A DNA stretch of 63,552 nt, filler included, from Basidiobolus ranarum (GCA_040143965.1; 41 parts of 41 records of this genome joined end to end with filler, not necessarily neighbours in it); one strand, 5' to 3'; positions 6,329 through 58,913 are shown, counted from the first letter of the whole stretch. Made by a program: numbers and translations. Notes: generated by a model not told the origin, from the letters alone.

Positions 6329-7692
6329 TCCATTGGGATAGATACTGGATTACATACTTCCTTTTTAAACTTATTTCGAATATCTAGGATATACTAAGAC
6401 TGGTTTAAAGTTATTGTTTTGGTAGTTTTATCTATCTTGATTTGGATTCCAAGATAGTACATCAGTTCACCTAGATCAGTCATTTTGAATTTGGCAGATA
6501 AGCTGGATTTGGTTTTCTCCAAAGTCTTCAAGTCATTGGTTGCTATAATAAGATCATCTACATATAAGGCTAATAAAACTGGGTTTGTCTTATCTGGCCT
6601 GAAGTAGATACTATAGTCAGCATTACTCTTTTGGAATTTGAGTGTTTCTAAAAAAGCATCTATCTTGCTATTCCAAGCTCTTGGAGATTGTTTTAAGCCA
6701 TAGAGTGTTTTCTGGAGTCTGCAAACTTTTTTAGGGTTTTCTGGGTCCACAAATCCATCTGGCTGGTCCATATAGATCTCCTCAGCAAGCTCACCATTCA
6801 AAAAAGCTGTTTTAACATCCATTTGATGTATAATAAACTGATATTTAGCTGAAATTGCTAAAATCAATCTAATTGAATTAAACTTTGCTACAGGAGCAAA
6901 AGTTTCTGTGTAATCTATTCCTGGTGTTTGGGAATAGCCTTTGGCTACTAGTCTAGCCTTGTACCTTTCTATATTGCCATCAGAGTTGTATTTAACTTTA
7001 AACACCCATTGGCAGCCAATTGATTTTCTATCATCAGGTAAGTTGGTTAAAATCCAAGTTTGATTATCAATCAAAGCCTGGTACTCATCAGCCATTGCAG
7101 ATCTCCAAAATTTTATGTGAGGGCCATTCAGGGCCCTTTTACAGTCTAAGGTTCATGTATTTGAGCTGTGCAGACATAGGCCCAATTTTGGGGCTCATTA
7201 ATATAGTAATCAGGGCTATTCCTGATCCAATTTGATCTCCCGGTTTGGGATAAAGGTACTACAACTTCTGGCATTGTACTGGGCACTCCAGTAAGCAAAA
7301 TGTTGGTTGAAGGGTCCACAGGAAGGCTATTTTCTTCATTGCTTTGGTTTGAATCAATTTGAATGATTTGATCAGGAGAAAATTGATTTTTGTCTTCATC
7401 TGAGATCATTTTGGGTGAAGATTTTTCATTTTCATTAAACAAAACATCCCTGAACTTGATTAGCTTGGAAATTTTGGTATCATAGAGTCTGTAGGCCTTA
7501 GTTTGAGTACAATAACCCAGAAATATGCATTTGTTAGTTTTTGGATCAAATTTAGATCAACTTTTGGTCATAATTTTGACTTAAGCAATGCATCCAAAGA
7601 TCCTCAAATGTTTTACATCAGGTTTAACTCCAAACCAAGCTTGATATGATGTAGAGTTAGACAGACTACTAGTAAAACTCCTATTCTTCAGA
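6329..7692 (-). mobile_element. Copia pol: integrase C-terminus and reverse transcriptase
   Basis: [42 protein letters not shown] (ORF 6394-7095). Confidence 0.95.
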
Positions 7693-7792: not shown

Positions 7793-9250
7793 AGCTCTGA
7801 AAAATGCCCGAGTCTTTGAACAGCTTCCTTGACTACATAGCCTCCTTTGTTGTATGGGATGCTGCCATGTTCTCTGCTTCAGTTGTTGAGAGTACTACAT
7901 TGGGTTGTTTCTTGCTATTCCAAGATATGGCTGCTTCACTATAGAGAAAGGCATATCCAGTGATAGATCTTCTGTCCTCAATAGCACATCCACAATCTGC
8001 AACACTAAACCCAATTAGACCCTTATTCTCATAAGAATGTGTGTATCTTAATCCCAGATCAATAGTGAACTTCAAATGATATATTTTGAGCCATATTTGG
8101 CCAATTTGCATCTCTTTGATGGGATTTTTGACTAGTTTCACACCTGGATCCATGGGAGTTGCTACTGGCTTATATTCTATAACATCTGAGAATGTCAGAG
8201 ATGTATCTAGACTGATTTAGAGTAATAGATTTGCTCAATATATCCATATTGCATCTGCAGGCAGAAAAAATTTGTAAGTTCACCTAAATTGATCATCTTG
8301 AATTAGACTGATAGATCTCTTTTGGTGTTCCCCAGTGCTTCATTATTATTGGTAGCTGTAATCACATCATCTACATATAAGGCAAGTATTACCTTATTGT
8401 CCCTATCTGTCACAAAGTAGATCTCAAAATCTACTATACTCTTTTGGAAATGAGTGATTTCAAGTATGTATCTATCTTAGTGTACCAGGTCCTAGGTGAT
8501 TATTTGTGTCCATAAAGTGATTTTTGAAGCTTACACACATCTGCAGGGTGCTCAGGATCTACAAAACCATCTGGTTGATCCATGTATGCATCCTCTTCCA
8601 AGTCCCTATTCAAACAAGAAGTTTTAACATCCATTTGATGGACTTGTAAGCTGTGTTTTGCTGCTACTGCTAGTAAGGTTTGGATGGAATTAAACTTTGT
8701 GATAGGAGCAAATGTTTTGTTGTAGTTTACTCCTTACATTTGGAGTATCCTTTAGCCACAACTCTGGCTTTACATCTCCCTACAGATCCATCAGCTTGCT
8801 GTTTAACTTCAAATACCCATTTGCATCCAACTGGTTTTTGGTCATCAGATAACTTAACCAAAGTCCAAGTTTGATTATCTTTGAGTGACTGATACTCCTT
8901 TGCCATTGCAGCACTCCAAAACTTTGTGTTGGGACTCTCCTTAGCCTCCTGTATTGATTTGGATTCAACAAAAAAGGCTAAATTAGCACTAGGTTCCTTT
9001 TGGCTAGAGTGAGAGTAGTAATTAGGCAAAGATCTCATCAAATTGGATTTCCTAAGATGGGAAATTGGCACTCCAACTTCCAGTACCAATTTAGTCAATG
9101 AAACCATCCCAGGCTTTGTTGAGGAGACTGCAGGTGAGGAATTTTCAATGATTTTCTTACTGAGCAGGATCTGGTGAGGAAAAGAAGAATCTTCATCAAT
9201 TTTTGGTTGTTTTTCTTGATCCTGGATTGTTTTCATTGAAAATATTTTAT
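7793..9250 (-). mobile_element. Copia RT and RNase H, decayed
   Basis: GCKWVF..KARVVAKGY, DRRSITGY, ISWNSKKQ, STTEAE. Confidence 0.92.
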
Positions 9251-10908: not shown

Positions 10909-12365
10909 ATAGTAAATTGCTGCTGAATTCCCTTTTCTTGACAAAAGCTAGTCATGGCTTCATTGCTAAATTCAGTTCCATTATCACTGCATAGGTATTT
11001 GATTTTTCTTCCTGTTATGATTGTGACCATTGCTTCATATATCTTGAAATATTGAAATACTTCTCCTTTGCTCAACAGAAGATGAGAAACTATGAAGTGA
11101 GATTTATCATCAGTAAAGATGAGTAAATATTGTCACTTACTTGGTGTCAGTGTTTGCATTGGGCCACATAAGTCTGTATGAATAAGATCCAATAAATCTT
11201 TGGCTTTGCTAGCTCCTTCTTTTTGAAATGGTTTTCTGATGATTTTCCCTTGAATACAGCTTTCACATTTAGTAATATCTGAGGGCTTAAGATCCATTCC
11301 AGTACATAGGCTATTTTTGTATAATAGTTTCACACTATTATAATTTAGATGACACAAGTGCTGATTCCCAATTATCAAGTTTCCAGAAGTAATTGTTGCA
11401 AAGTTAGAAACAGTCTCAGTTATCGGTGCAATATCTTGGTGATATAGATTCCCAATTCTTGTTCCAGTTGCTACAAAAGTCCTTTGATTTGTATATGGTT
11501 GCTTTTCCTTGGCTGAATTTGACATCATAATGTTTCTTTTCATTTGCTCCAATTGAAAACAGATTTGTTGTAAATGATGGAAAACATAAGACATCTTCCA
11601 AGGTTACCGTTACACTTTTGGTTTTACATATTTGTAAGTCAAGTGTGACCTTTCCCATTCCATATGCAACCTGTTTATTTATTCCAGCTACTGTGATGTC
11701 TAGAGGTTCTATTTCCTTATAGTCATGCATTATGTTTCTATTGTGACAAATATGATCACTTGCACCAGTATCTATAATCCATATATCAGCAGAGTCATTT
11801 CCTGATTTAGAGGTTGCCATAAGTACATAGTGTTCATTTCCTCTTTTAGTGATGTTATATACTTCCTTTTTCTTTGAAACCCATTTCTTCTTTGATCTGC
11901 AGTAATGTGCTATATGTCCCAGTTTTCCACATTTGTAACATTTCACAGTGTTCCTTTCTGGTTGACTATTTTGAGAATAAAATGCTTGTGTAGTTTTTGT
12001 TTCATCTGCAAGCTGACTTTTGTCTTTCCTTTTAAAATCTTCTTGACATAGATGAGAGATCACATAATACTGAGTAAGCTTATCCCCAATTGCTTCCAAC
12101 ATGAGTACAAGGGCTGAATATGATTCAGGGAGACCATTGATTATGGTAAGAATTATATTCATTTCAGGTACATCATAATTCACTAATTCGAGTTGTTGGG
12201 CAAGTTTCTTGACACCATTTACATATGTCAGAATATCTGAATCATCAGACATACAAGAGTTTAGAATTTTCTTTGTAGCATCATCAAGTGAGCAAGCCCT
12301 TTTTGCTCATGATGTTCCACTAGGATTTCCCATGCATTCTTGGCAGAGTCAGCATCTCTGCCTAG
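10909..12365 (-). mobile_element. Copia gag-protease-integrase, decayed
   Basis: CYKCGKLGHIAHYC knuckle, WIIDTGASDH, LIHTDLCGPM, SDNGTEF. Confidence 0.93.
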
Positions 12366-14021: not shown

Positions 14022-14280
14022 ACAACAGCATATTGCTTCAGTTGAGAAGCGGCACAATGGTGAAAAACATATTGCCTCGGTTGAAAAGCGTCACAATGGT
14101 GAGAAGCATGTTACTTCAGTTGAGAAGCGTCATAATGGCGAAAAGCATGTTGCCTCGGTTGAGAAGCGTCACAATGGCGAAAAACATGTTGCTTCAGTCG
14201 AGAAGCGCCACAATGGCCAACAACATGTTGCTTCAGTCGTGAAACGCCACAATGGCCAACAGCATGTTGCTTCAGCCTAA
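14022..14280 (+). CDS. Kex2-processed repeat peptide precursor, upstream copy (3' end only)
   Basis: Hand translation: QQHIASVEKR HNGEKHIASVEKR HNGEKHVTSVEKR HNGEKHVASVEKR HNGEKHVASVEKR HNGQQHVASVVKR HNGQQHVASA*. AATAAA follows. Confidence 0.88.
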
Positions 14281-14897
14281 TGGTGGCACAATAAACGGCA
14301 AGTACGTAAAGAGGTCAACATTATTATACCTTATTTTCCTATTCTTTCAAGTTATAGAATACCCCAAGCCACTCACATGTTTGTTATATATATATATTTA
14401 TTAATAAATTGATTTGTTCAACTTCAAAAGGAGCCATTGGATTATATTTGCTATGTTTATTCACATATCAGGTTGATTTAAGCAAGTACATCTCTACTCA
14501 AGGATAATGTCAAAATTATATATAAATCATTAGATATATACCTCCCGATTATCACATACATTTAGCACTATGTCAGGGTACGATCCGTATACTGAAAATC
14601 ATACTTATCCTTGCAACAAGTTAATATACATCATACTTTAATATTAGATGACGAAGTTCAACGGAAATAAAGCTATAAGTAGATATAAAGTACTATTGAA
14701 GGTGGGGTCAAACAAACACAATATAAATCCGGTTTAGATAACTAGATGCAACTTCATGTAAGCAAACATATATGGCGTTGGAATCAGGGCATGATTAAAC
14801 TGCAGAGCATCCTGACTGATTACTTATTCCTCCGAAGAAAGTTGCAGTGATCACGCTTGCTCAATTGGCTACAGAAGTAGTTGAGATCTTACTAGAC

Positions 14898-14905
14898 TAT
14901 AAAAG
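14898..14905 (+). promoter_or_regulatory. Candidate TATA box of the downstream repeat precursor
   Basis: TATAAAAG about 140 bp upstream of the ATG at 15040. Confidence 0.55.
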
Positions 14906-15039
14906 AGTCCAGTTATATCTAAAAAGATATTAAGCAATCTCTACTCTTTAGTACAACAATACTAATAGAATTCAACTTGAGGTTTTCAGGATAATTTCTA
15001 CCAAGCAACACCTCTAGCGACAACAATCAGCTTTTCAAA

Positions 15040-15477
15040 ATGCGTTTTAACTCTTTCAGTTTAACAGTATTGGCTTTGGCTTCTCTAGCATTAGCAGGTA
15101 GTAGTCAGGCTGTAAATGTGCAATTCTTAGAGAAGAGGATGACTGAATTAAATGGCCAACATCATGTCGCCTCGGTTGAGAAGCGCCACAATGGTCAACA
15201 GCATGTTGCCTCGGTTGAGAAGCGCCACAATGGACAACAACACGTTGCTTCAGTTGAAAAGCGTCACAATGGTGAGAAGCATGTTGCCTCGGTTGAAAAG
15301 CGTCATAATGGTGAGAAGCATGTTGCCTCGGTCGAGAAGCGCCACAATGGACAACAACACGTTGCTTCTGTTGAGAAGCGTCACAATGGCGAAAAACATG
15401 TTGCCTCGGTTGAGAAGCGTCACAATGGACAACAACATGTTGTCTCAGTCGAGAAGCGTCACAATGGTGAAAAGCAT
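15040..15477 (+). CDS. Secreted Kex2-processed repeat peptide precursor (KEP), downstream copy, 3' truncated
   Basis: Signal peptide MRFNSFSLTVLALASLALAGSSQA, pro-segment ending LEKR, then eight complete KR-terminated units plus a partial ninth of HNG(QQ/EK)HVASVEKR. Variation between units is mostly synonymous. Confidence 0.92.
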
Positions 15478-15577: not shown

Positions 15578-17033
15578 GGTATTACCAATATACTTGATGG
15601 ATATCACTACCCAAATCTGAAAAGTCAAGGTTTCTTTGAGAACACATATGATCATGCATTTGCATTGGCTCTGGATGGTTTCTCACTAAACAAATATACC
15701 GTTGGAAAGGCTTGCTGGCCAATAATTTTAATTAACTTAAATCTTCCTCCTTCTGAACAGTATAAGAGTCATAATATTTTGATACTATCCATCATATCTG
15801 GACCTAAATCACCAGTGCTTATAGATAGCTTCTTGGAGCCTTTGATTGCAGAATTTGAATGGTTATCTAATGGGGTTCAGATGGGTGAATATTTTATTAA
15901 GGCTAATATCCTTGTATGTATTGGTAACACTCCTGCCATCAGTAAACTTGGAGGTTTTTGCAGGAACAATGCACTATCTTGCTGTAGATTTTGTCAAATC
16001 AATGGAGTTTACTCATTCAAGCATATACTTTACTATTATCCAAATACAGAACTAAACTCCATGATTTTATCATCAAGAGGCCAGTCAAATTTCAACATGA
16101 TCACTAATATCACCTCACTAAATAGTCAGTCTAACATCAAACTTGTTATTAGCCAAAGCCTAGGGTCATATTGCTCAAGGGGTTCAGCTGGAGTCGGAGC
16201 GTCCCATTAGGCACTATGCACTTACTATTCCATAACATTGCAGTATTACTTACTCAGCTATATAGCAGCAAATTCATTATGGATGAGCCATTGGAGATAG
16301 GATCTAAGTTTGAATTGATTAAGAAAATGCTTGAAAACATCAAGATACCATCATATTTTACCATGACTTTCAATAATATCCACTCATCTAGGTGTTTATT
16401 CAACTGGAAAGATTAGAAAGATTGGAAGTATTGAATTCTTATATATTCAAGTCAAATTACAAAAAGATTTCTGCCCAATAAGTATTGGCAACATTGGGAG
16501 TTGTTTGTTGATATTGTTAATACATTCTTATGGCATTAACTCACATTGCCAGATCTGAGGCAGATACAGCAACAGTGCAAAGATTTTGTAATTGGATACA
16601 AACCACTTTATTATAGGCTTAAAGAAAATAGTCTGAATGTACGCCAGTATTCAATACATTCCCTGCTCCATCTTTCTCAATGCTTAGAGATTATAGGCCC
16701 TTGCTGTACAATCTGGGAGTTTCCAATGGAGCATACATGTGGTGAAGCAATGCTCCATATGAAATTGTCAGTGTTACCATATGCAAATCTGATTAACAAT
16801 GTATCAGCAAAATCAGTGATGGATGTCATGCAATGGGTTAAGGAGACTCCAAAGTATATTAACCTTCCAACAAAAGGCTCTTTTCAATGTGTGCATGGGT
16901 TTGCACATTGTTTGAGCACAATAACAGCAACAAAGCCCAATCCTTGGACACAGAGTAAGTACCTCTATAATTCAGACTAACTTGTTTGTTTTATTATTTG
17001 ATGGTGTCAGTTGGAATGCTGCAACACAGACTT
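15578..17033 (+). mobile_element. CACTA/EnSpm transposase core, decayed
   Basis: LALDGF, GPKSP..DSFLEPLIAEF, CRFCQING, MHLLFHNI, HSLLHL..IGP..WEFPME. Confidence 0.85.
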
Positions 17034-24906: not shown

Positions 24907-26213
24907 GACATATTGGATCTGATTTTTTGAGCAAAGTGATCAAAAATCTCCTAATTTCTAGAACTCAAATCAATCCTCAACCCAAAATGGAAATTTGTGA
25001 GGGTTGTATATATGTAAAACAAGCCAGCAACCATTCCAGAGCTCTGGTTTAACCAAATCTGTCAATAAAATGGATCTAATTCATTCAGATATGTGTGGAC
25101 CTATGCAAAATTTATCTTTAGGCAGAATAAGATATTTAATCACACTGCTTGATGATTATACAAGAAACACTTCAGCCTACTCTATGGAAAGAAAAGAAAA
25201 AGCTCTCTTTATCTTGAGAGATTTTAAAATACTTGTGGAGACTGAAACCAAAACTAAAAACAAGAAAATCTATAGTTGTAATGGTGGAGAATATACTTCA
25301 ACACTATTTAAGCACATTTGCAAAGTTCATGGAATCAATCAAGAAACTACTGCCCCATATTCATCTCAACAAAATGGAATTGCTGAAAGAGCTAACAGGA
25401 CTATAACAGATATGGCAAGATCTATGATAAATGCACAAAATTTATCTCATAACTTTTATGCAGAATCTGTTGCTACAGCTGTATATCTGAAGAATAGGAG
25501 CTTTACTAGCAGTCTGTCTAACTCTACACTATATCAAGGTTGGTTTGGAGTTAAACCTGATATAAAACATTTGAGGATCTTTGGATGCATTGTTTATGTC
25601 AGAGTTGTGACCAAAAATTAGTCTATATTTGAACCAAAAGGTGAGAAATGAATATTTCTAGGTTATTGTACACAAACCAAGGCCTACAGACTCTATGATA
25701 CCAAGATTTCCCAGTTATTCAAGTCCAGGGATGTTATGTTTAATGAAAATAAAAATATTCACCCAAAATGATCTCAGATGATGATGTAAATCAACTTTCT
25801 CCTGATCCAATCATTCAGATTGATTCAAACCAAAACAATGAAGAAAAAAGCATTCCTGTGGACCCTTCAACCATGATTTTGCCTACTGAAGTGCCCAATA
25901 CAATTCCAGAAGTTGTAGTACCCTTATCCCAAACCAGGAGATTAAATTGTATCACAAATAGCCCTGATTATTGAATCAATAAGTCCTAGAATTGGGCAAA
26001 TGCCTGCACAGCTCAAATATATGAGCCCCAGACTGTAAAAGATATTGAAATTAGCATCTATATAGTCATATATAACTTAGTACTTAGTTATGTTATAATT
26101 CACTAAGATATTATCCATCATTCTCATAAGGAATTTATTTAGGATATTTTACTAACTTAGAAGTTCTCAGATATATAGATTTTTTCAAACTTGTACTAGA
26201 AGCCCCAAACTTT
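24907..26213 (+). mobile_element. Copia integrase, interrupted near 26043 by LTR family B
   Basis: LIHSDMCGPM, NGGEY, QQNGIAERANRT. Confidence 0.92.
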
Positions 26214-26499: not shown

Positions 26500-27912
26500 A
26501 AAAGATTGCAAACCAAGAAATTACAACAAAGATGTGATGTCAGAACCAGCAAATCAGGTTTCAACCAATGAGGAAGTTTTATTCATTTCTGCCCTATATG
26601 TGACCTCTGAACAAGACTGTAGGTTGTGATATATTGATTCTGAAGCTTCTCAACATTTCTCCAATCACAAAATCTGGTTTAAGACACTCAAAACTGACAT
26701 AAAGTAGAAGGTTTATATGGGATATGACCGGCCACTAGAAGCTCTGGGAGTGGGAAAAATTGAAGTGGAGCTTGAGAGCATCTCTGGGGACATGAATTTG
26801 CACAGAAAAATGTGCTATATGTTCCTGGGATAGCAAAAAAATTTGTTATCAGTGAGTAAAGCTACATACAAGGGGTGTAGCTTTAATTTTGATCAAAATG
26901 GCTGTGCAATCAGGGATCAAAAAGGGAATTATGTAGCTTCTGGAGCTAAGCAAAATAACTTGTATAATATTCATTATATTAGGCCAATATATGAACAAGT
27001 TAATATGGCCACAGCTGAAGAGATAGGCTGGAAAATCTGGCATAAGAAATTAGATCATCCAGGAGCTGAAAATATGAGATATTTAATCAAAGACAGGATG
27101 GTTTTGGGACTAAGTTTTGTAAATCCACTGGATCTGGGGCTATGTGAAGGTTGCCTATATGGTAGGCAACACAGACAGACATTTGTGGGCCCTGGAGTGA
27201 GCAAAATAGATCAAAAATTGGGCCTGATACACTCAGATCTGTGGGGCCCAATGCAGATGAAATCCTTAGGTGGAAAAAGGTATTTTATGACCTTAATTGA
27301 TGATAAGCCAAAGTATACTTGGGTGTACTTTCTGGCCAGTAACAATGAAGCCTTTGATACCTTCAGGAAATTCAAAGCAATGGTGGAGACTGAAACAGGT
27401 CTAAAGATTAAGATTATCTTTACTGATAATGAATGGGAATATACCTCAAAACTCTTCTGTAACTTCTGCTCAACACATGGGATAAAACAGCAGACTACAG
27501 TGCCATATTCTCCACGGCAGAATTTGCAAACAGATCAACAATGGAAAAGGCAAGATCAATGCTTCGTGGTCAAGATTTGCCAAAACAGTTCTGGGCTGAA
27601 TTGGTTGCAACTGCAGTATATACTAGAAATAGATGCCCTTGTAGGTCTCTATTGGCTGTGCCACCTTATCAAGCTTGGTTTGGAAGTAAACCTGATGTGG
27701 CTAATCTAAGAGTTTTTGGAAGTACCACATATGCACTGATTCTAGACCAGAAGAGATCAAAATTAGACCAAAAAAGCTAGAAATGTCTTTTTTGGGATAT
27801 TTGTTATAGAACAAAAGGGTACAGACTATATGACACTGAAAATAAAAGGCTAATGAAGTCAAGGGATGTGGAACTTGCTGAAGAAGAAAAACTTTCACTG
27901 AAAATAATCCTG
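26500..27912 (+). mobile_element. Copia family A protease-integrase, decayed
   Basis: Paralogue of 2200-3018. [21 protein letters not shown]. Confidence 0.92.
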
Positions 27913-35772: not shown

Positions 35773-35947
35773 GTATGGCGGTGGTGGTGGCGGCGACTAC
35801 GATGATGATGAGTATGATGGCCATGGTGATGGAAGAGGAAAGAAGTACGGTGGAGGTGGGGGAGGTGATGATTATGATGGTGACGACTATGATGGCAAGA
35901 AATACGGTGGCGGTCATGGTGGAAACAATGACTACAAGAAATACTAA
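35773..35947 (+). CDS. Gly/Tyr/Asp-rich repeat protein, upstream copy (3' end)
   Basis: Hand translation: YGGGGGGDYDDDEYDGHGDGRGKKYGGGGGGDDYDGDDYDGKKYGGGHGGNNDYKKY*. AATAAA follows. Confidence 0.82.
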
Positions 35948-36839: not shown

Positions 36840-37224
36840 ATGAAATACTCTACTGCACAGCTATTGATCGTCCTTTCCGCTATTCTAGCTATAAATGCTA
36901 GTGTGTTCGAACGCTCGTACGACCCTAGTTATAAAGGGGTAGAATATGGTGGTGGCGGTGGTGGTAGAACCAAAAAATACGGAGGTGGTGGTGGTGGCCA
37001 TGGCGATTACGATGATGACGAATACGATGGTGACGGTCATGGAAGAGGAAAGAAATACGGTGGTGGCGGTGGTGGTGACGACTATGACGATGATGAGTAC
37101 GATGGGCACGGTGATGGAGGTGACTATAAGCATGGACGGGGAGGAGGCAATAAATATGGAGGTGGTGGCGGCGGTGATTATGACGATGATGAATATGATG
37201 GTCATGGTAATGGAGGGGGAAGAG
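36840..37224 (+). CDS. Secreted Gly/Tyr/Asp/Lys repeat protein, downstream copy, 3' truncated
   Basis: Signal peptide MKYSTAQLLIVLSAILAINA, then repeats of KKYGGGGGG-DYDDDEYDGHG. Confidence 0.88.
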
Positions 37225-37718
37225 NNNNNNNNNNNNNNNNNNNNNNNNNNNNNNNNNNNNNNNNNNNNTTAATTAATTAANNNNNNNNNNNNNNNNNNNN
37301 NNNNNNNNNNNNNNNNNNNNNNNNATCAGACTGGGGTCTGATCAAGGAATACATGGGGCTTATATAGATATTTCAAGGTGAAACATAATATACTTAATAG
37401 GAAATATATTGTGGCAAGTTCAAGAGTTGGGGTGTTGGGGTGTTGGGGGCTATAAGGACCAATACAAAGAGGGATGATGTAAGGATAATCAGGTGACCTT
37501 CCATGGAAGGTCTTGGCAGAAATACACTATGTGTGGGATGACATGATTGGTTAGGTTTCATGGGATGTTCTGAAGAACATGACTTCTATATAAGGTAATA
37601 TGGACAAACTAATACAAGATTGCCAAGAAGAGATGGCACAGAAGATATAATGTCATAATCTAATAATAGAGGAGTTCTATTTGCAGTGGATCAGTATGCT
37701 GAGATCAGAATCATGACA

Positions 37719-38130
37719 GTATGTGTTGGAGCAAGTTGTCTACCTTGTGGTTTGTGTTTGGCAGTTCTTGCCTCTTCAACCACAGTAGAAGCTTCATCTC
37801 TTTTGACTGGCCGTGGCTGCGGTCGCATGGCAGTACATGTTGGAGCAAGTCGTCTACCTTGTGGTTTGTGTTCGTGGTTATTGCTTCTTTAACCACAGTG
37901 GAAGCTTCATCTCTTTTGACTGGCCTTTGCCAAGGTCACATTCCAGTACATGTTGGAGCAAGTTGTATACCTTGAGGTTCATGTTTGGCAGTTCTTGCCT
38001 CTTCAACCGCAGTAGAAGCTTCATCTCTTTTGACTGGCCGCTGTGACCTCTGTTGCATGGCAGAACATGTTGGAGCATATAGTCTACCTTGAGGTTTGTG
38101 TTTGATTATTGTGGCTTCTTCAAGCTCAGT
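37719..38130 (-). repeat. About 114-bp tandem repeat (3.5 units) within a dispersed element
   Basis: GTTGGAGC at 37725, 37839, 37952 and 38069. Same array at 56215-56580 and 58175-58420. Confidence 0.85.
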
Positions 38131-40556: not shown

Positions 40557-41877
40557 TTATTCCTCATCTTCTTCAGCATCACCACCGCTGGCAGCCATTC
40601 TCTTTCTCTTGACACGGCCAGCACGACCACCACCATAGGGGGAGGTCAAGGCGAAGTCGATGTGCTTCTGGGATTCCAAACGAACAACGAAAGAAGGAAT
40701 GTCGACAACTTGTTTACCAACACGAATGTGTCTTTGCTTGATGAGGACACGGGCGTGGTGAATGGACTTGGCCAATCCAAGCTTGAATACTTGGGTTTGG
40801 AGTCTGCGCTCCAAGAAATCTTCAACCTTAAGACCTAAAACGTAATCAAGCTTGGCCTTGCTCTCATCCAAAACACCAATACGAATGAGGCGACGGATAA
40901 GGGCGTTACCTTCGAAGAGACGACGGGTATCCTTAACATCTAAGGTAAGGAGCTCACGAGCGGCACGACGAATGTTGGAAAGAGTATAACCAATTCTCCA
41001 AATTTCGCGCTTGTTACGAAGACCATACTCACCGATGATCTTCAACTCTTGATCCATACGTTCCTTCTCGAAAGGACGTCTAGGAACCTTGTAGGTTTTT
41101 GAGCCTATAGAAATTGAAAAGAAATTTCGGTAAAGTTTCTGTTGTAACTTTCCTTTAACTTTAAGCTAGACCTATTTATTCGTTCATGCCCAGAGAATAT
41201 GCTAGGTCTCTCTTCTTTAAAATAAACCGTATTTGAAAAATTACTAATAAAATTCTACTAATAAAACGTGAATTTTACCGATAAAAAAACGGCTTTTAAA
41301 GAATACAGTTTCTTGGGGGAGCCATTCTGTGCCGTTGTTAAATCTGACCAAGGGAAAAGATGGTTTCTTAAGCGAAGTCTTCTTTTTTAACCGACATTCT
41401 GACGAAAAAATCCGAACCCTCCCTAATTCAGTCCAATCAATCCAATCATCCCTCATAATTTCTACTTGATCGACCCCTGTTAGGATTAGTCCAGATTTTT
41501 TTTTTGCCCCGGAGCCGAGGAAATAAAGGGTAGTTCGAAGTCAGGAAACATCCTTTTCTCTTTCACGAGTCCCGTGGGAAACTCCTGTAAGTATACGCAT
41601 GTTTTACAAGATACGAACAATGTCACCAATGAACATGGTCGAAACCGATTGAATCTTTCGGAAGACCAACGTTCTGAATTTATTGGACAATCTAAGCAAT
41701 TTAGGGTTAGGTTAAATCCTCACATACATGTACTAATGTTACGTTGGATTAATGTTATTATTAGTAAGCAAACATGCCTCACTCATTCGGTTATCGTGCT
41801 CGTACCCGTCACTTGTTTTCCCAAAAATTCCGTGAACATGGTTCCATTAAGCTTTCGACTTACTTAAAGACTTACCG
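40557..41877 (-). CDS. RPS9: 40S ribosomal protein S9 (uS4): main exon 41104-40557, probable intron 41875-41105, first exon cut off by the contig end
   Basis: [36 protein letters not shown]...[31 protein letters not shown]; acceptor CTATAG; donor CG/GTAAGT. Confidence 0.97.
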
Positions 41878-54371: not shown

Positions 54372-55819
54372 TTGAGCAGCTTGGCAGCAGATGACAAGGT
54401 GGTTGTTGGCTACTATGTCCCTTGGGGTAAGGTTGAGCCCGAACAGTTGAGTCTTGATAAAGTCACCCACATCAACTATGGTAATTACAAGTGTCTACTC
54501 CTCGTTAAAGGCATGATGCTGATATCTTACTAATCTGATTTCCTTTCCTTTCATCCAGGATTTGGAGTATTGACTAAGAAAACCGCAGACCCTACTGAGA
54601 TCTTCATCGACAGATACTATGATGGTAACAGAATTCGTAAGCTGAAGCAAGTAGCTAGTGCTAAGGGAGTCAAGACTCTGATCTCCTTGGGTGGTTGGAC
54701 TGGAAGTCAAACCTTCTCCACCATTGTTCGTGACGCATCTCTACGCAAGAAGTTCATCAACAATGCTCTTGTGTTTGTACGTAAGAACACAAAGCCTGAC
54801 TATGATGCCAATCCCGACGGTTGGGACCTTGATGGTATCGACATCGATTGGGAATACCCTGGAAGACAGGCTGCTATTTGTAACGTTGTTGACAAAAGTG
54901 ATAGTGCCAACTACTTGGTGTTGCTGAAGGAACTCAGAGCCGCTCTTGATGCCGAGTTCCCTAACGAACACAAACTCTTGACTGCCGCGGTCAGAGTACA
55001 ACCATTCGATGGTGTCGATGGCAAGCCAATGTCCGACGTATCTGCTTATGCTCAATACTTCGACTTCATCAATGTGATGGCTTATGATATCATGGGATCC
55101 TGGTCAGCTACCACAGGACCCAATGCTCCATTCGATTATGACACTGCAAAGGGTGGGGATGCCTATTCCTTCCGTCAGTCAATCAACGATTGGATTGGTG
55201 CCAAATGGCCCGCTAACAAGCTTGTCATGGGAATGCCATTCTATGGCCGCTCTCTCACCGCCACTGTTGACATGAACGCCAATCCAAGCAACCAGTATGC
55301 ATCCAAAGAGAGTGTTACTCCCAAGGGTGATTCCAATGATGCCAATGATCCAAACTTCTTCTGTAACGAGGGAACCTTCTACTCAGGTATCTGGAAGTGG
55401 AAGTCCATTCGTAGTGACATTCTTCAGTCAGGACCTACCTCACCTGCCAGTGGCTGGACACGTAACTGGGACAACACTACTCAAACCCCATGGTTGTTCC
55501 GTGCCAGTGACAAACGCTTCATATCCTATGATGATCCTCAATCTCTTAAGATCAAGGTGGACTACACCAAGCAAGCTGGACTTCGTGGAGTGATGTACTG
55601 GGACATGAGCCACGACTCCAATGACGAATTGCTTAACGTGTTACAAGGAGTTCGTTGTACCGGATCAGGCTGTCCCGTCCCAACCATCCCCCCTATAACT
55701 ACTACCACTGCTCAACCTACTTCCACTATTCCCAGCAAGACATCCACCGCTACCTCCAGTGGTTCAGTCAGTACCGGTTCACCCAGCCCTACCTCAGTAC
55801 CCGGTATCTGCAATGGTGT
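54372..55819 (+). CDS. GH18 chitinase, near complete (exon to 54480, intron 54481-54558, exon 54559-55819+)
   Basis: SLGGW, catalytic DGIDIDWEYP, NVMAYD, GMPFYG, ISYDDPQS, GVMYW; Ser/Thr/Pro linker leading into the start of a CBM. Confidence 0.97.
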
Positions 55820-56012: not shown

Positions 56013-57366
56013 ATATAATGCATACTACCATGCAACAGCAACAAAGGCCAACCATAAGAATTATTGAACCTTCCACTTTGTTGGATGATGATCTGATACC
56101 TGAGAGCAATCTACTAACACAGTGATCCATTACAATGCATACCCCCACAAGACCAAGACAATGATATTTGAGGGAGATAGTGAAGCTCTTCCTGATCTTG
56201 AAGAAGTCACAATAGTCAAACACAAACCTCAAGGTAGATAATATGCTCTGATGAATTCTGCCATGCAACAGAGTTCATAGCAGCCAGTCAAAAGAGATGA
56301 AGCATCTACTATGGCTGAAGAGGCAAGAACTACCAAATGCAAACCTCAAGGTGTGCAACTTGCTCCAACATGTACTGCCATGCAACTGTGGTCATGACCA
56401 ATCAAAAGAGATGAAGCTTCTACCATGTTTGAAGAGGCAAGAACTGTTGAACAAGAACTACAAGGTAGATGACTTGCTCCAACATGTACTGCCATGCAAC
56501 CATGGCCACGGCCAGTCAAAAGAGATGAAGCTTCTACTGTGGTTGAAGAAGCAATAACAGTCAAGCACTAACCTCAAGTGAGACATTCTGGTCAATGCCT
56601 AGAGCTGCATGCCAGCAGCAATGGCTGGTTGACCCATTAAGTGAAGGCTCCACATCAGAAGAAGAAACTGTCAACACAAACAAACCATAAACTAGACTGG
56701 ACAAGCCAATGCATACCACAGCACATCAATCTCAAGCCACAACTCATGCTGGCTGAGGTAGAGGAACTTCAGCAGGATCAAACCAACCAACTCAGCACAG
56801 AGGTTCAAGCAAAGTTCCTACTGTGGAAATAGTAAGGAGACAACAAAAGTAACAGAAGCAAATCAGCATATACTGCTTCAAACCTAGGCAAATGCTGAAT
56901 ACTTGTATTAATACTTACATTATCCTATCTTTACTGTTTAGCACTTCATGCAAAATCAATATGGACCGCAGCTAAATATAGCATAAATTGCTTTAGTTAG
57001 ATCTTGATTGCTTATGTGTTTATGAAACCCCAATAGCATGAAATTGTCTTATATCAAAAAAATTAATGATAGCCTATTAATACAAGCAATTTCACTAAAA
57101 TCAAATGAAAAATGTCGGTCAATAAAAAGCTTGCAAAGCCGTATTAGCTCAATATGGCTCAATCTATTCACATTTTCACCCAATTAGAAGCTTATATGAT
57201 TGAATGAATAATTTGCTGATCTAAGAATGAAGACTCAAGCAATCCTGATCATTACTTTAATACTGCAGACCAATTCATCATTGAGTACTGTGATTTGTCA
57301 CCAGTGTGCCAAAACTACTGGTGCTTTGTAATGCAGGAGCTGTTGTGCCCAATTGAAAATCCAGAT
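56013..57366 (+). mobile_element. Dispersed element carrying the 114-bp tandem repeat
   Basis: AAAAGAGATGAAGC recurs at 114-bp spacing. Reverse-complement homology to 37719-38305 and 57467-58420. Confidence 0.7.
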
Positions 57367-57466: not shown

Positions 57467-58913
57467 ACTCAATGATTGATCAATCTGCAGTATGATAGTA
57501 GTGATCAGGATCACTTGATTCATCATTTTTAGATCAGCAAATTATTCATTCAATCATGTAAGCTTCTAATTGGGTGAGAATGTCAATGGATTCAGCCACA
57601 TTGAGCCAATACAGCTGTGCAAGCTTCTTATTTATAGACATTTTTCATTTCATTGTAGTGAAATTGCTTGTTGTGATAGGATATCATTGATTTTTTTGAT
57701 ATATGACAATTTCATGCAATCATTGCTTCATAAAGACATAAGCAATTGTGATCCAACTAAAGAGATCTATGCTACATTTAACTTCAATCCATATTGATTT
57801 TGCATGATGTGCTAAGCAATAAAGTTAGGATAATGCAAGTATTAACTAGAGCAAGTGGCAGTTGCCCAGCTTTGAAGCAGTACATGCCGATTGGTTTCTG
57901 ATATTTTTGTTGTCTCCTTGATATTTCCATGGAAGGAACTTTGCTTGAACCTCTTCACTGAGTTAGTTGGTTTGATCCTGCTGAAGTTCCTCTATCTTGG
58001 CTAGCATGAGTTGTGGCTTGAGATTGATGCACTGTGGTATGCATTAGCTTGTCCAGTCTAGTTTCCAGTCTGTTTGTATCTACAGTCTCTGCTTCAGATG
58101 TGGAGCCTTCACTTAATGGGCCAACAAGCCATTGCTGATGGCATGCAGCTCTATGCTCTAACCTGGAATGTCTCACTTGAGGTTTGTGCTTGACAGTTAT
58201 TGCTTCTTCAACCATGGTAGAAGCTTCATCTCTTTTGACTTGCCATGGCCACAGTCACATGGCAGTACATGTTAGAGCAAGTCATCTACCTTGAGGTTTG
58301 TGCTTGACTGTTATTGCTTCTTCAACCACAGCAGAAGCTTTGTCTCCTTTGACTGGCCATAGCTGTAGTTGCATGGCAGTATATGTTGGAGCAAGTCTTC
58401 TACCTTGAGGTTTGTATTAAGTAGAAATCTCATTGCAAAACCAGCAAAGCAAAAGACTCTGAATTATCAGAGCTGCAATCACTTGCTCTGATGATGAGTG
58501 ATTTAACAATTTGGAAACTGTGCAAAATGGTGCCCAAAATCACCTGGATTTGAGCCAATTGTGGAAAAACCAAAAACCAGTTGTTACTCTGAAGATTCTT
58601 GACTTATTTTGTGTGGCATATCCTGGGTTTTTGCAAGTAAATGGCAATTGAGCTAGTATAGGCCTATTCATGAAACATCTCAAAATGTATGCAATTATTG
58701 ACTTGGAAAAGAAAGAAAAGCAATTAAAAAAGTACTGAAGGAGCAGGAAGTTAGTAAACTCAATGGAAAAGCAAAGAACCCAGTGAGTTTAGGCTCTACT
58801 GTCCCACTGACCAAATTTTTCACACCATTACAAAGATCTGCAATTCCAGAGTCAGATATACTGGCAAAAAAGCTTAATTTCACCATGGAACCAGGTACAA
58901 CAGTTGGAAGAGT
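57467..58913. mobile_element. 114-bp-repeat element (-) joined to CACTA second ORF (+, from about 58425)
   Basis: Homology to 56215-57290 and to 39190-39680. Confidence 0.7.

Follow-up and report, generated by a model that had tools for sequence, protein, structure and literature searches.

The contig at positions 14022..15477 of the window, the whole 63,552-base stretch of DNA that we analyzed, probably captures the junction of two genes lying head to tail in a tandem array of at least two that code for repeat proteins of the Kex2-processed kind (KEPs) in a Basidiobolus species. The window comprises 41 contigs of 1446-1459 bp each, ordered longest first and separated by linkers made of 44 N, TTAATTAATTAA and another 44 N. 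It is an artificial concatenation, and the order of the contigs in it has no biological meaning. The repeat contig is a single whole contig of 1456 bp, read here on the plus strand, with a G+C content of 39.1%, a linker on either side and both of its ends within a 39-bp repeat.

Gene anatomy and conservation of the repeat units

The contig opens on the 3′ piece of a repeat gene (14023-14280, plus strand). This piece begins with a partial unit clipped by the contig start, QQHIASVEKR (14023..14052), and continues with five complete 13-amino-acid units (14053..14247), four of which read HNGEKH(V/I)(A/T)SVEKR and one HNGQQHVASVVKR. It closes with a terminal unit, HNGQQHVASA, which lacks the Lys-Arg (KR) pair and is followed by a TAA stop codon at 14278-14280 (14248..14280 including the stop). 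Next comes an AT-rich intergenic spacer of 759 bp (14281..15039, plus strand; G+C content of 32.7%). It contains an AATAAA motif at 14290, 10 nt past the stop codon, and a TATAAA motif at 14898, 142 nt ahead of the following ATG, which could serve as a poly(A) signal and a TATA box, respectively. An Rfam search of the spacer returned no match, and bacterial promoter and terminator motifs occurred in it at chance level.

The 5′ piece of a gene follows on the same strand (15040-15477), with 146 amino acids visible. It starts with a signal-peptide-like leader, MRFNSFSLTVLALASLALAGSSQA (15040..15111), in which a basic n-region (MRFN) precedes a 15-residue hydrophobic core (mean Kyte-Doolittle value of 2.01) and the sequence GSSQA, with small residues at positions -3 and -1 (S-Q-A). 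The pro-segment VNVQFLEKR (15112..15138) ends at the first dibasic site, L-E-K-R. The first unit, MTELNGQHHVASVEKR (15139..15186), is a 16-amino-acid variant in which Leu replaces His and QH replaces QQ or EK. Seven complete 13-amino-acid units come after it (15187..15459), four of the QQ type, one of them with VVS, and three of the EK type, all ending in V-E-K-R; a partial unit, HNGEKH, is clipped by the contig end (15460..15477). Over both pieces we counted 16 full or partial units, with KR intact at 15 of 15 dibasic sites (13 V-E-K-R, one V-V-K-R and one L-E-K-R) and Arg codons at these sites that vary (CGT 8, CGC 5, CGG 1 and AGG 1). Cys, Asp, Pro, Trp and Tyr are absent from both coding pieces. 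The initial annotation of this DNA had described a signal peptide with a short pro-segment, at least 15 full or partial 13-amino-acid units and an LNG motif confined to the first unit, and each of these features was recovered.

KEPs are defined in the texts of two surveys by a signal peptide and at least three tandem repeats of at least 8 amino acids (none above 100 amino acids), separated by KR, KK, RK or RR and making up at least 15% of the protein (PMC6339444, PMC7329392). In the present protein, the signal peptide was recognized by inspection and hydropathy, SignalP having been used in both surveys. The 5′ piece has seven complete units and the variant, all ending in KR, and the 3′ piece has five complete units. 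Residues 34-146 of the visible 146 amino acids are repeats (77%), and the 3′ piece consists of repeats up to its stop codon. Judged by its sequence features, the protein is thus a KEP by the published definition. The layout of a Kex2/Kex1-processed precursor that had been proposed for it is supported by the leader, the LEKR pro-site and the KR-ended units. The accompanying suggestion of a possible new class is unsupported or overstated, as the class is the one already catalogued in these surveys. A length of 13 amino acids falls within the class of 9- to 24-amino-acid units, which is described as including known pheromone-type peptides (PMC6339444).

Tandem Repeats Finder (TRF) detected a 39-bp period, i.e., 13 amino acids, in both repeat blocks, and a degenerate pattern of the unit identified 12 complete units, all on the repeat contig, with 0 expected from 100 shuffles. 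All frames are open over such a repeat, and an open frame is thus by itself no proof of coding. Among the 12 complete units, variable columns at codon positions 1, 2 and 3 numbered 4, 2 and 11 of 13 each, so that third positions varied in 11/13 cases and first and second positions together in 6/26 (Fisher p = 4.3e-4), and the pooled ratio of nonsynonymous to synonymous differences (pN/pS) was 0.095 in the leader-carrying frame, all of these figures being descriptive since unit pairs are not independent. Of the five other frames, four gave a ratio above 1. The remaining one, at 0.143, is antisense; its third positions fall on those of the open reading frame (ORF), and its unit contains a stop codon. 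A reading frame other than the leader-carrying one was rejected. In the leader frame, strong purifying selection acts on the repeat units, and what is conserved is the peptide sequence, as had been surmised from the variation of third positions around kept residues.

The QQ and EK types never mix, with eight EK, six QQ and one QH in full NG..H contexts, in addition to one leading partial QQ unit. Outside the QQ/EK codons, units showed 4.45 differences within types versus 4.89 between types (permutation p = 0.14), and we draw no conclusion from this linkage as to descent versus selection.

Predicted processing, peptide products and fold

By analogy with characterized KEPs, the leader would direct the precursor to the endoplasmic reticulum, where the signal peptide would be removed. 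A Kex2-type protease of the Golgi would cleave after every K-R, a Kex1-type carboxypeptidase would take off the K and R residues, and the cell would release many copies of the linear 11-mers HNGQQHVASVE and HNGEKHVASVE. Minor products would include variants at I7, T8, V8 and V11, a 14-mer derived from the variant unit at the start, and the terminal 10-mer HNGQQHVASA, for which trimming would be dispensable. No Ste13 step would be needed, because there are no X-A or X-P spacer dipeptides. Ahead of the cut, the aliphatic residue at P4 and the acidic one at P3 are reminiscent of L-E/D-K-R in the pro-region of alpha-factor. As to the enzymes, in a survey of 250 species only 15 protein catalogues are given as being without at least one of KEX1, KEX2 and STE13 (PMC6339444).

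The calculated masses of HNGQQHVASVE and HNGEKHVASVE are 1205.2 Da and 1206.3 Da, respectively, and both have a pI of about 6.0. The two 11-mers have the same calculated net charge, which is about -1 at pH 7 and becomes about +1.4/+1.6 at pH 5. An N-terminal His together with a second His could chelate Cu, Ni or Zn, and Asn-Gly is both deamidation prone and a classic tight beta-turn. Our best guess is that the product may be a secreted, unmodified peptide facing the biotic or chemical surroundings, either as a signal or as a weakly metal- or pH-responsive peptide, and we favor none of these roles; a subtle, environment-facing role would be the default expectation. The free N-terminal His, the second His five residues on, the Asn-Gly turn and the pI of about 6 are also the features behind a more specialized reading, which we regard as a long shot. 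According to it, a fungus that passes through the gut would use the array to saturate its environment with a Cu/Ni/Zn-binding or pH-switched beta-sheet coat peptide, the first one outside Dikarya to resemble Rep1 of Ustilago maydis, or else with a pheromone of Zoopagomycota. The existence of a peptide pheromone in early-diverging fungi is posed as a question in the text of one survey (PMC6339444). The array would carry greater weight if its peptides were shown to be made in quantity and active, as functions are known for almost none of the KEP-derived peptides outside Dikarya. Synthesis of the predicted 11-mers would be cheap, and at about 1205 and 1206 Da they would be easy targets for mass spectrometry.

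The repeats might also have a function as an intact protein. AlphaFold2 run on the single sequence predicted a beta-meander of eight 10-residue strands, one per unit, with a turn at every N-G; the predicted local distance difference test (pLDDT) score was 77-91 over the repeats and the predicted template modeling (pTM) score 0.62, while the leader was modeled with low confidence. As a control, the +1 frame-shifted translation of the repeats yielded a helical model with a mean pLDDT of 59.8 and a pTM of 0.20. Because this control scored low, the confidence of the fold is not merely a product of periodicity. The strands, the control and the conservation of every unit position, not of KR alone, would all suit a secreted, uncut His-rich beta-sheet repeat protein with a part in the cell wall, adhesion or metal binding, in which each 13-residue unit would form a strand, Asn-Gly the turns, and KR would be structural. 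We consider such a protein unlikely. The control was a single one, and single-sequence prediction on perfect repeats is unreliable, confident regular models being a recognized weakness. A Foldseek search of the PDB gave no match at E ≤ 0.001 (best E of 0.17), and the strands are largely polar, with no obvious hydrophobic core. Moreover, KR is found at every one of the 15 unit boundaries, and the pro-segment, which is not a repeat, also ends in EKR before the first unit, as is typical of processed precursors. We read the model as an indication of beta-strand propensity, which leaves both an uncut folded protein and self-assembling peptides alive.

Probable tandem arrangement, host genus and contig context

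The order of elements on this single contig is the tail of a repeat gene, the spacer and the head of a repeat gene, which implies that at least two such genes lie side by side. The tandem arrangement, seen on one broken contig, is likely. The initial annotation had reported two head-to-tail copies about 760 bp apart. The spacing and the head-to-tail junction hold, but what the contig contains is two complementary fragments with one signal peptide, and neither is a full gene. Units from the same block are no more similar to each other than to units from the other block (6.74 versus 6.63 differences), and both blocks contain identical words as long as 35 nt. Contig ends that lie in repeats, together with such shared words, are the signature of a repeat that breaks a short-read assembly, and the number of genes at the actual locus may be two or far more.

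Those same contig ends and shared words, of the kind that breaks or loops short-read assemblies, raise the question of whether the duplication is itself an artifact, either a single gene with a misassembled join or the collapsed consensus of a larger array, all the more so in an assembly as fragmented as this one, with 41 contigs of about 1.45 kb in the window. We find this quite unlikely. The spacer, unique in the window by blastn, connects both coding ends, and no long shared repeat is obvious where it does so. If the gene were single copy, the sequence downstream of it would not come to lie ahead of its own start, and a collapsed larger array would still amount to tandem genes. In addition, duplication and clustering of KEP genes have been described for Basidiobolus meristosporus (PMC7329392).

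According to the survey text, B. meristosporus CBS 931.73 has 43 KEPs, the most among 1461 strains, with seven of one type and 18 present in two to three copies (PMC7329392). In the 30 of 43 rows of its Table S2 considered here, near-consecutive accessions occur in runs, e.g., ORX75517-75524 and ORX91595-91599, and many rows carry type '0', meaning no homologue. Across fungi, the same source counts 2560 KEPs without homologues out of 7878 and describes most types as genus specific (PMC7329392). An orphan tandem KEP in Basidiobolus is thus expected, because the genus is rich in KEPs with duplications and homologue-less KEPs are common. The present one adds an orphan KEP to the genus with the record number and supports the expansion of KEPs by tandem duplication in Basidiobolus. 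In full-text literature, Basidiobolus and Kex2 were found together only in PMC7329392, and the words 'RiPP' and 'KEP' are absent from a preprint of 2025 about new genomes of Basidiobolus.

By sequence matches, two marker genes on other contigs identify the assembly as Basidiobolus. One is an intron-free ORF for a GH18 chitinase (54534-55817, plus strand) on a contig with a G+C content of 47.9%. Its product is 87% identical to a B. meristosporus CBS 931.73 protein, with 98% of its length aligned; identity is 71% to B. ranarum and at most 69% to Mortierellaceae. The other is an uninterrupted ORF for the cytosolic ribosomal protein S9 (uS4) (40560-41165, minus strand), with 97% and 98% identity to B. 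meristosporus and B. ranarum, respectively, the other normal-length S9 proteins among the matches listed reaching at most 91%. The assembly apparently corresponds to neither of the two annotated Basidiobolus strains matched. The G+C content of the repeat contig lies inside the span covered by the remaining 40 contigs (33.6-47.9%). An origin from a bacterium or a virus was rejected. Separately, a chitinase of Rhizomucor miehei ranked third among the PDB chains matched by the GH18 ORF.

The gene neighborhood of the repeat genes is unreadable, because what flanks them in the window comes from unrelated contigs. Windows concatenated from short contigs carry no gene-neighborhood information, and short-read assemblies break precisely such repeat genes. 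A coiled-coil-like ORF precedes the repeat contig and a tnp2-type transposase fragment trails it, both on unrelated contigs. Neither blastn nor the unit pattern revealed any sequence shared between the repeat contig and the remainder of the window. Fragments of copia-type long terminal repeat retroelements (RVT_2, gag and integrase) and of a tnp2-family transposase make up many of the short contigs (6397-7152, 8730-9248, 11419-12306, 25001-25618, 26834-27706 and 15578-16207), which is in keeping with a genome that is rich in repeats and in which these finish as contigs of ~1.4 kb. A 113/114-bp tandem repeat occurs on three contigs (37712-38104, 56258-56558 and 58176-58415), with 2.1-3.4 copies in each and 81-86% matches. 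These stretches sit only in stop-to-stop frames of about 90-116 amino acids, and they probably represent either a dispersed noncoding repeat or a portion of some mobile element. TRF also reported short tandem repeats of 15 and 75 bp on two neighboring contigs (36975-37118 and 35864-35895).

Relatives and known precursor systems

As far as similarity searches can tell, the peptide sequence is new to every collection searched. A Pfam search with the protein (P0001) gave four rows, all far under the curated cut-offs, and in a word-indexed search of proteins of 80-256 amino acids, none of 6196 candidates reached E ≤ 0.01. An exhaustive phmmer search of 1.84 billion representative proteins returned 59 matches at E ≤ 1e-3 but none at E ≤ 1e-30, the best having an E-value of 1.1e-20 at 36% identity. 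All 59 were screened by script and 18 were inspected individually; apart from a few KEP-like look-alikes, they are unrelated proteins with a 13-residue period. In metagenome contigs, 224 pattern matches were obtained, none of which was confirmed by tblastn, and a degenerate HVASVEKRHNG pattern was found neither in metagenome contigs nor in prokaryote genome contigs. Neither KEP catalogue has the peptide strings in its supplements, a weak negative since the Umemura tables list accessions and not sequences. The nearest ESM Atlas clusters were small fungal hypothetical proteins (0.86 and 0.84) and an MF_alpha cluster (0.79), all below the 0.9 level and leads only. That the peptide had not been recognized at the outset agrees with these results, HNG(QQ/EK)HVASVE having no homologue in the protein, metagenome and prokaryote collections (Basidiobolus genome DNA was not searched).

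Several points weigh against a tandem KEP array in Basidiobolus. There is no complete gene on the repeat contig, which has no taxonomic marker either, so that its placement in Basidiobolus comes from other contigs of the assembly. Conservation spans the whole unit, so that KR and cleavage are not singled out, and an uncut protein might fold in such a way as to hide its KR sites. Lastly, annotated proteins of B. meristosporus and B. ranarum were within the collection searched, yet no relative surfaced. The family may be very young, or else it may be unannotated in, or absent from, these two species.

Four of the phmmer matches are KEP-like in build (P0015, P0027, P0031 and P0058). Two of them, P0031 (202 amino acids) and P0058 (262 amino acids), resemble the present protein in having a signal-like leader and HNPSNVPSPVEKR-type units that start with H-N and end with (V/I/A)-(E/Q)-K-R, and their predicted products would carry an N-terminal His-Asn like the present peptides. 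However, only the boundary aligns (V-E-K-R / H-N): the core is PSNVPSP instead of GQQHVAS, the units vary in length, and there is no second His. Their phmmer E-values, 6.8e-5 and 7.9e-4, respectively, are inflated by repetition. The larger protein P0007 (1634 amino acids) also has KR-separated units starting with His-Asn, HNNSKVSSSDSKR. From these sequences, a boundary of E/S-K-R followed by H-N may be a recurrent processing-site context.

A KEP-like cut could also be a first step only, with the peptides then modified by tailoring enzymes encoded nearby, which would make the protein a new fungal precursor of a ribosomally synthesized and posttranslationally modified peptide (RiPP). In the published accounts, 22% of KEP genes lie near genes for DUF3328 cyclization factors, some of these types having His motifs, and Basidiobolus is described as rich in secondary-metabolite clusters. 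We nevertheless hold a RiPP to be very unlikely, as the core contains no Tyr, Trp, Cys or Pro, the 1456-bp contig shows no neighboring genes, a DUF3328 gene is nearby in 0/185 Zoopagomycota KEPs in Table 1 of one survey (PMC7329392), and the KEP-derived peptides reported by mass spectrometry in four agaricomycetes are described as linear, or at most minimally modified, among those detected so far.

Among known precursors, those of the UstA-type dikaritins are described as having a signal peptide and KR-separated repeated cores, as does the present protein. Their own cores carry Tyr (Y-x-I) and their genes lie near DUF3328 genes, whereas the core found here has neither Tyr nor Trp, and a dikaritin precursor of the ustiloxin/phomopsin type was ruled out on that ground. 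The criteria for such precursors are an aromatic core residue (Tyr) that serves in cyclization and a DUF3328 (UstYa-type) gene no more than about 15 genes away. An alpha-factor homologue was ruled out as well, since there is no Pfam match to MF_alpha and KR is followed by H-N rather than by X-A or X-P. Unlike MFalpha1/2, the protein has no EA/DA (Ste13) spacers and no Trp or Pro, and its pro-segment is far shorter (9 amino acids); the proximity of the MF_alpha cluster in the ESM Atlas is no more than a lead. The initial view that the peptide fits neither alpha-factor nor the dikaritins thus stands.

Rep1 of U. maydis is likewise a KR-separated repeat precursor, and its Kex2 products form beta-rich fibrils at the hyphal surface. 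The Rep1 peptides are several times longer than the present units, and no sequence relation to Rep1 was seen in the phmmer search of 1.84 billion representatives. The present units are predicted to be beta-strand prone, and self-assembly would be a purely speculative extension of that prediction.

The KEPs of Basidiobolus itself offer the remaining comparison. KEP type S-3 (#158) of B. meristosporus is Tyr rich with multiple Asp, by its description in the survey (PMC7329392), whereas the present protein has no Tyr or Asp. With the Basidiobolus KEPs at large, it has in common the signal peptide, the short pro-region, more than three near-identical KR-separated units, the tandem or duplicated genes and the genus.

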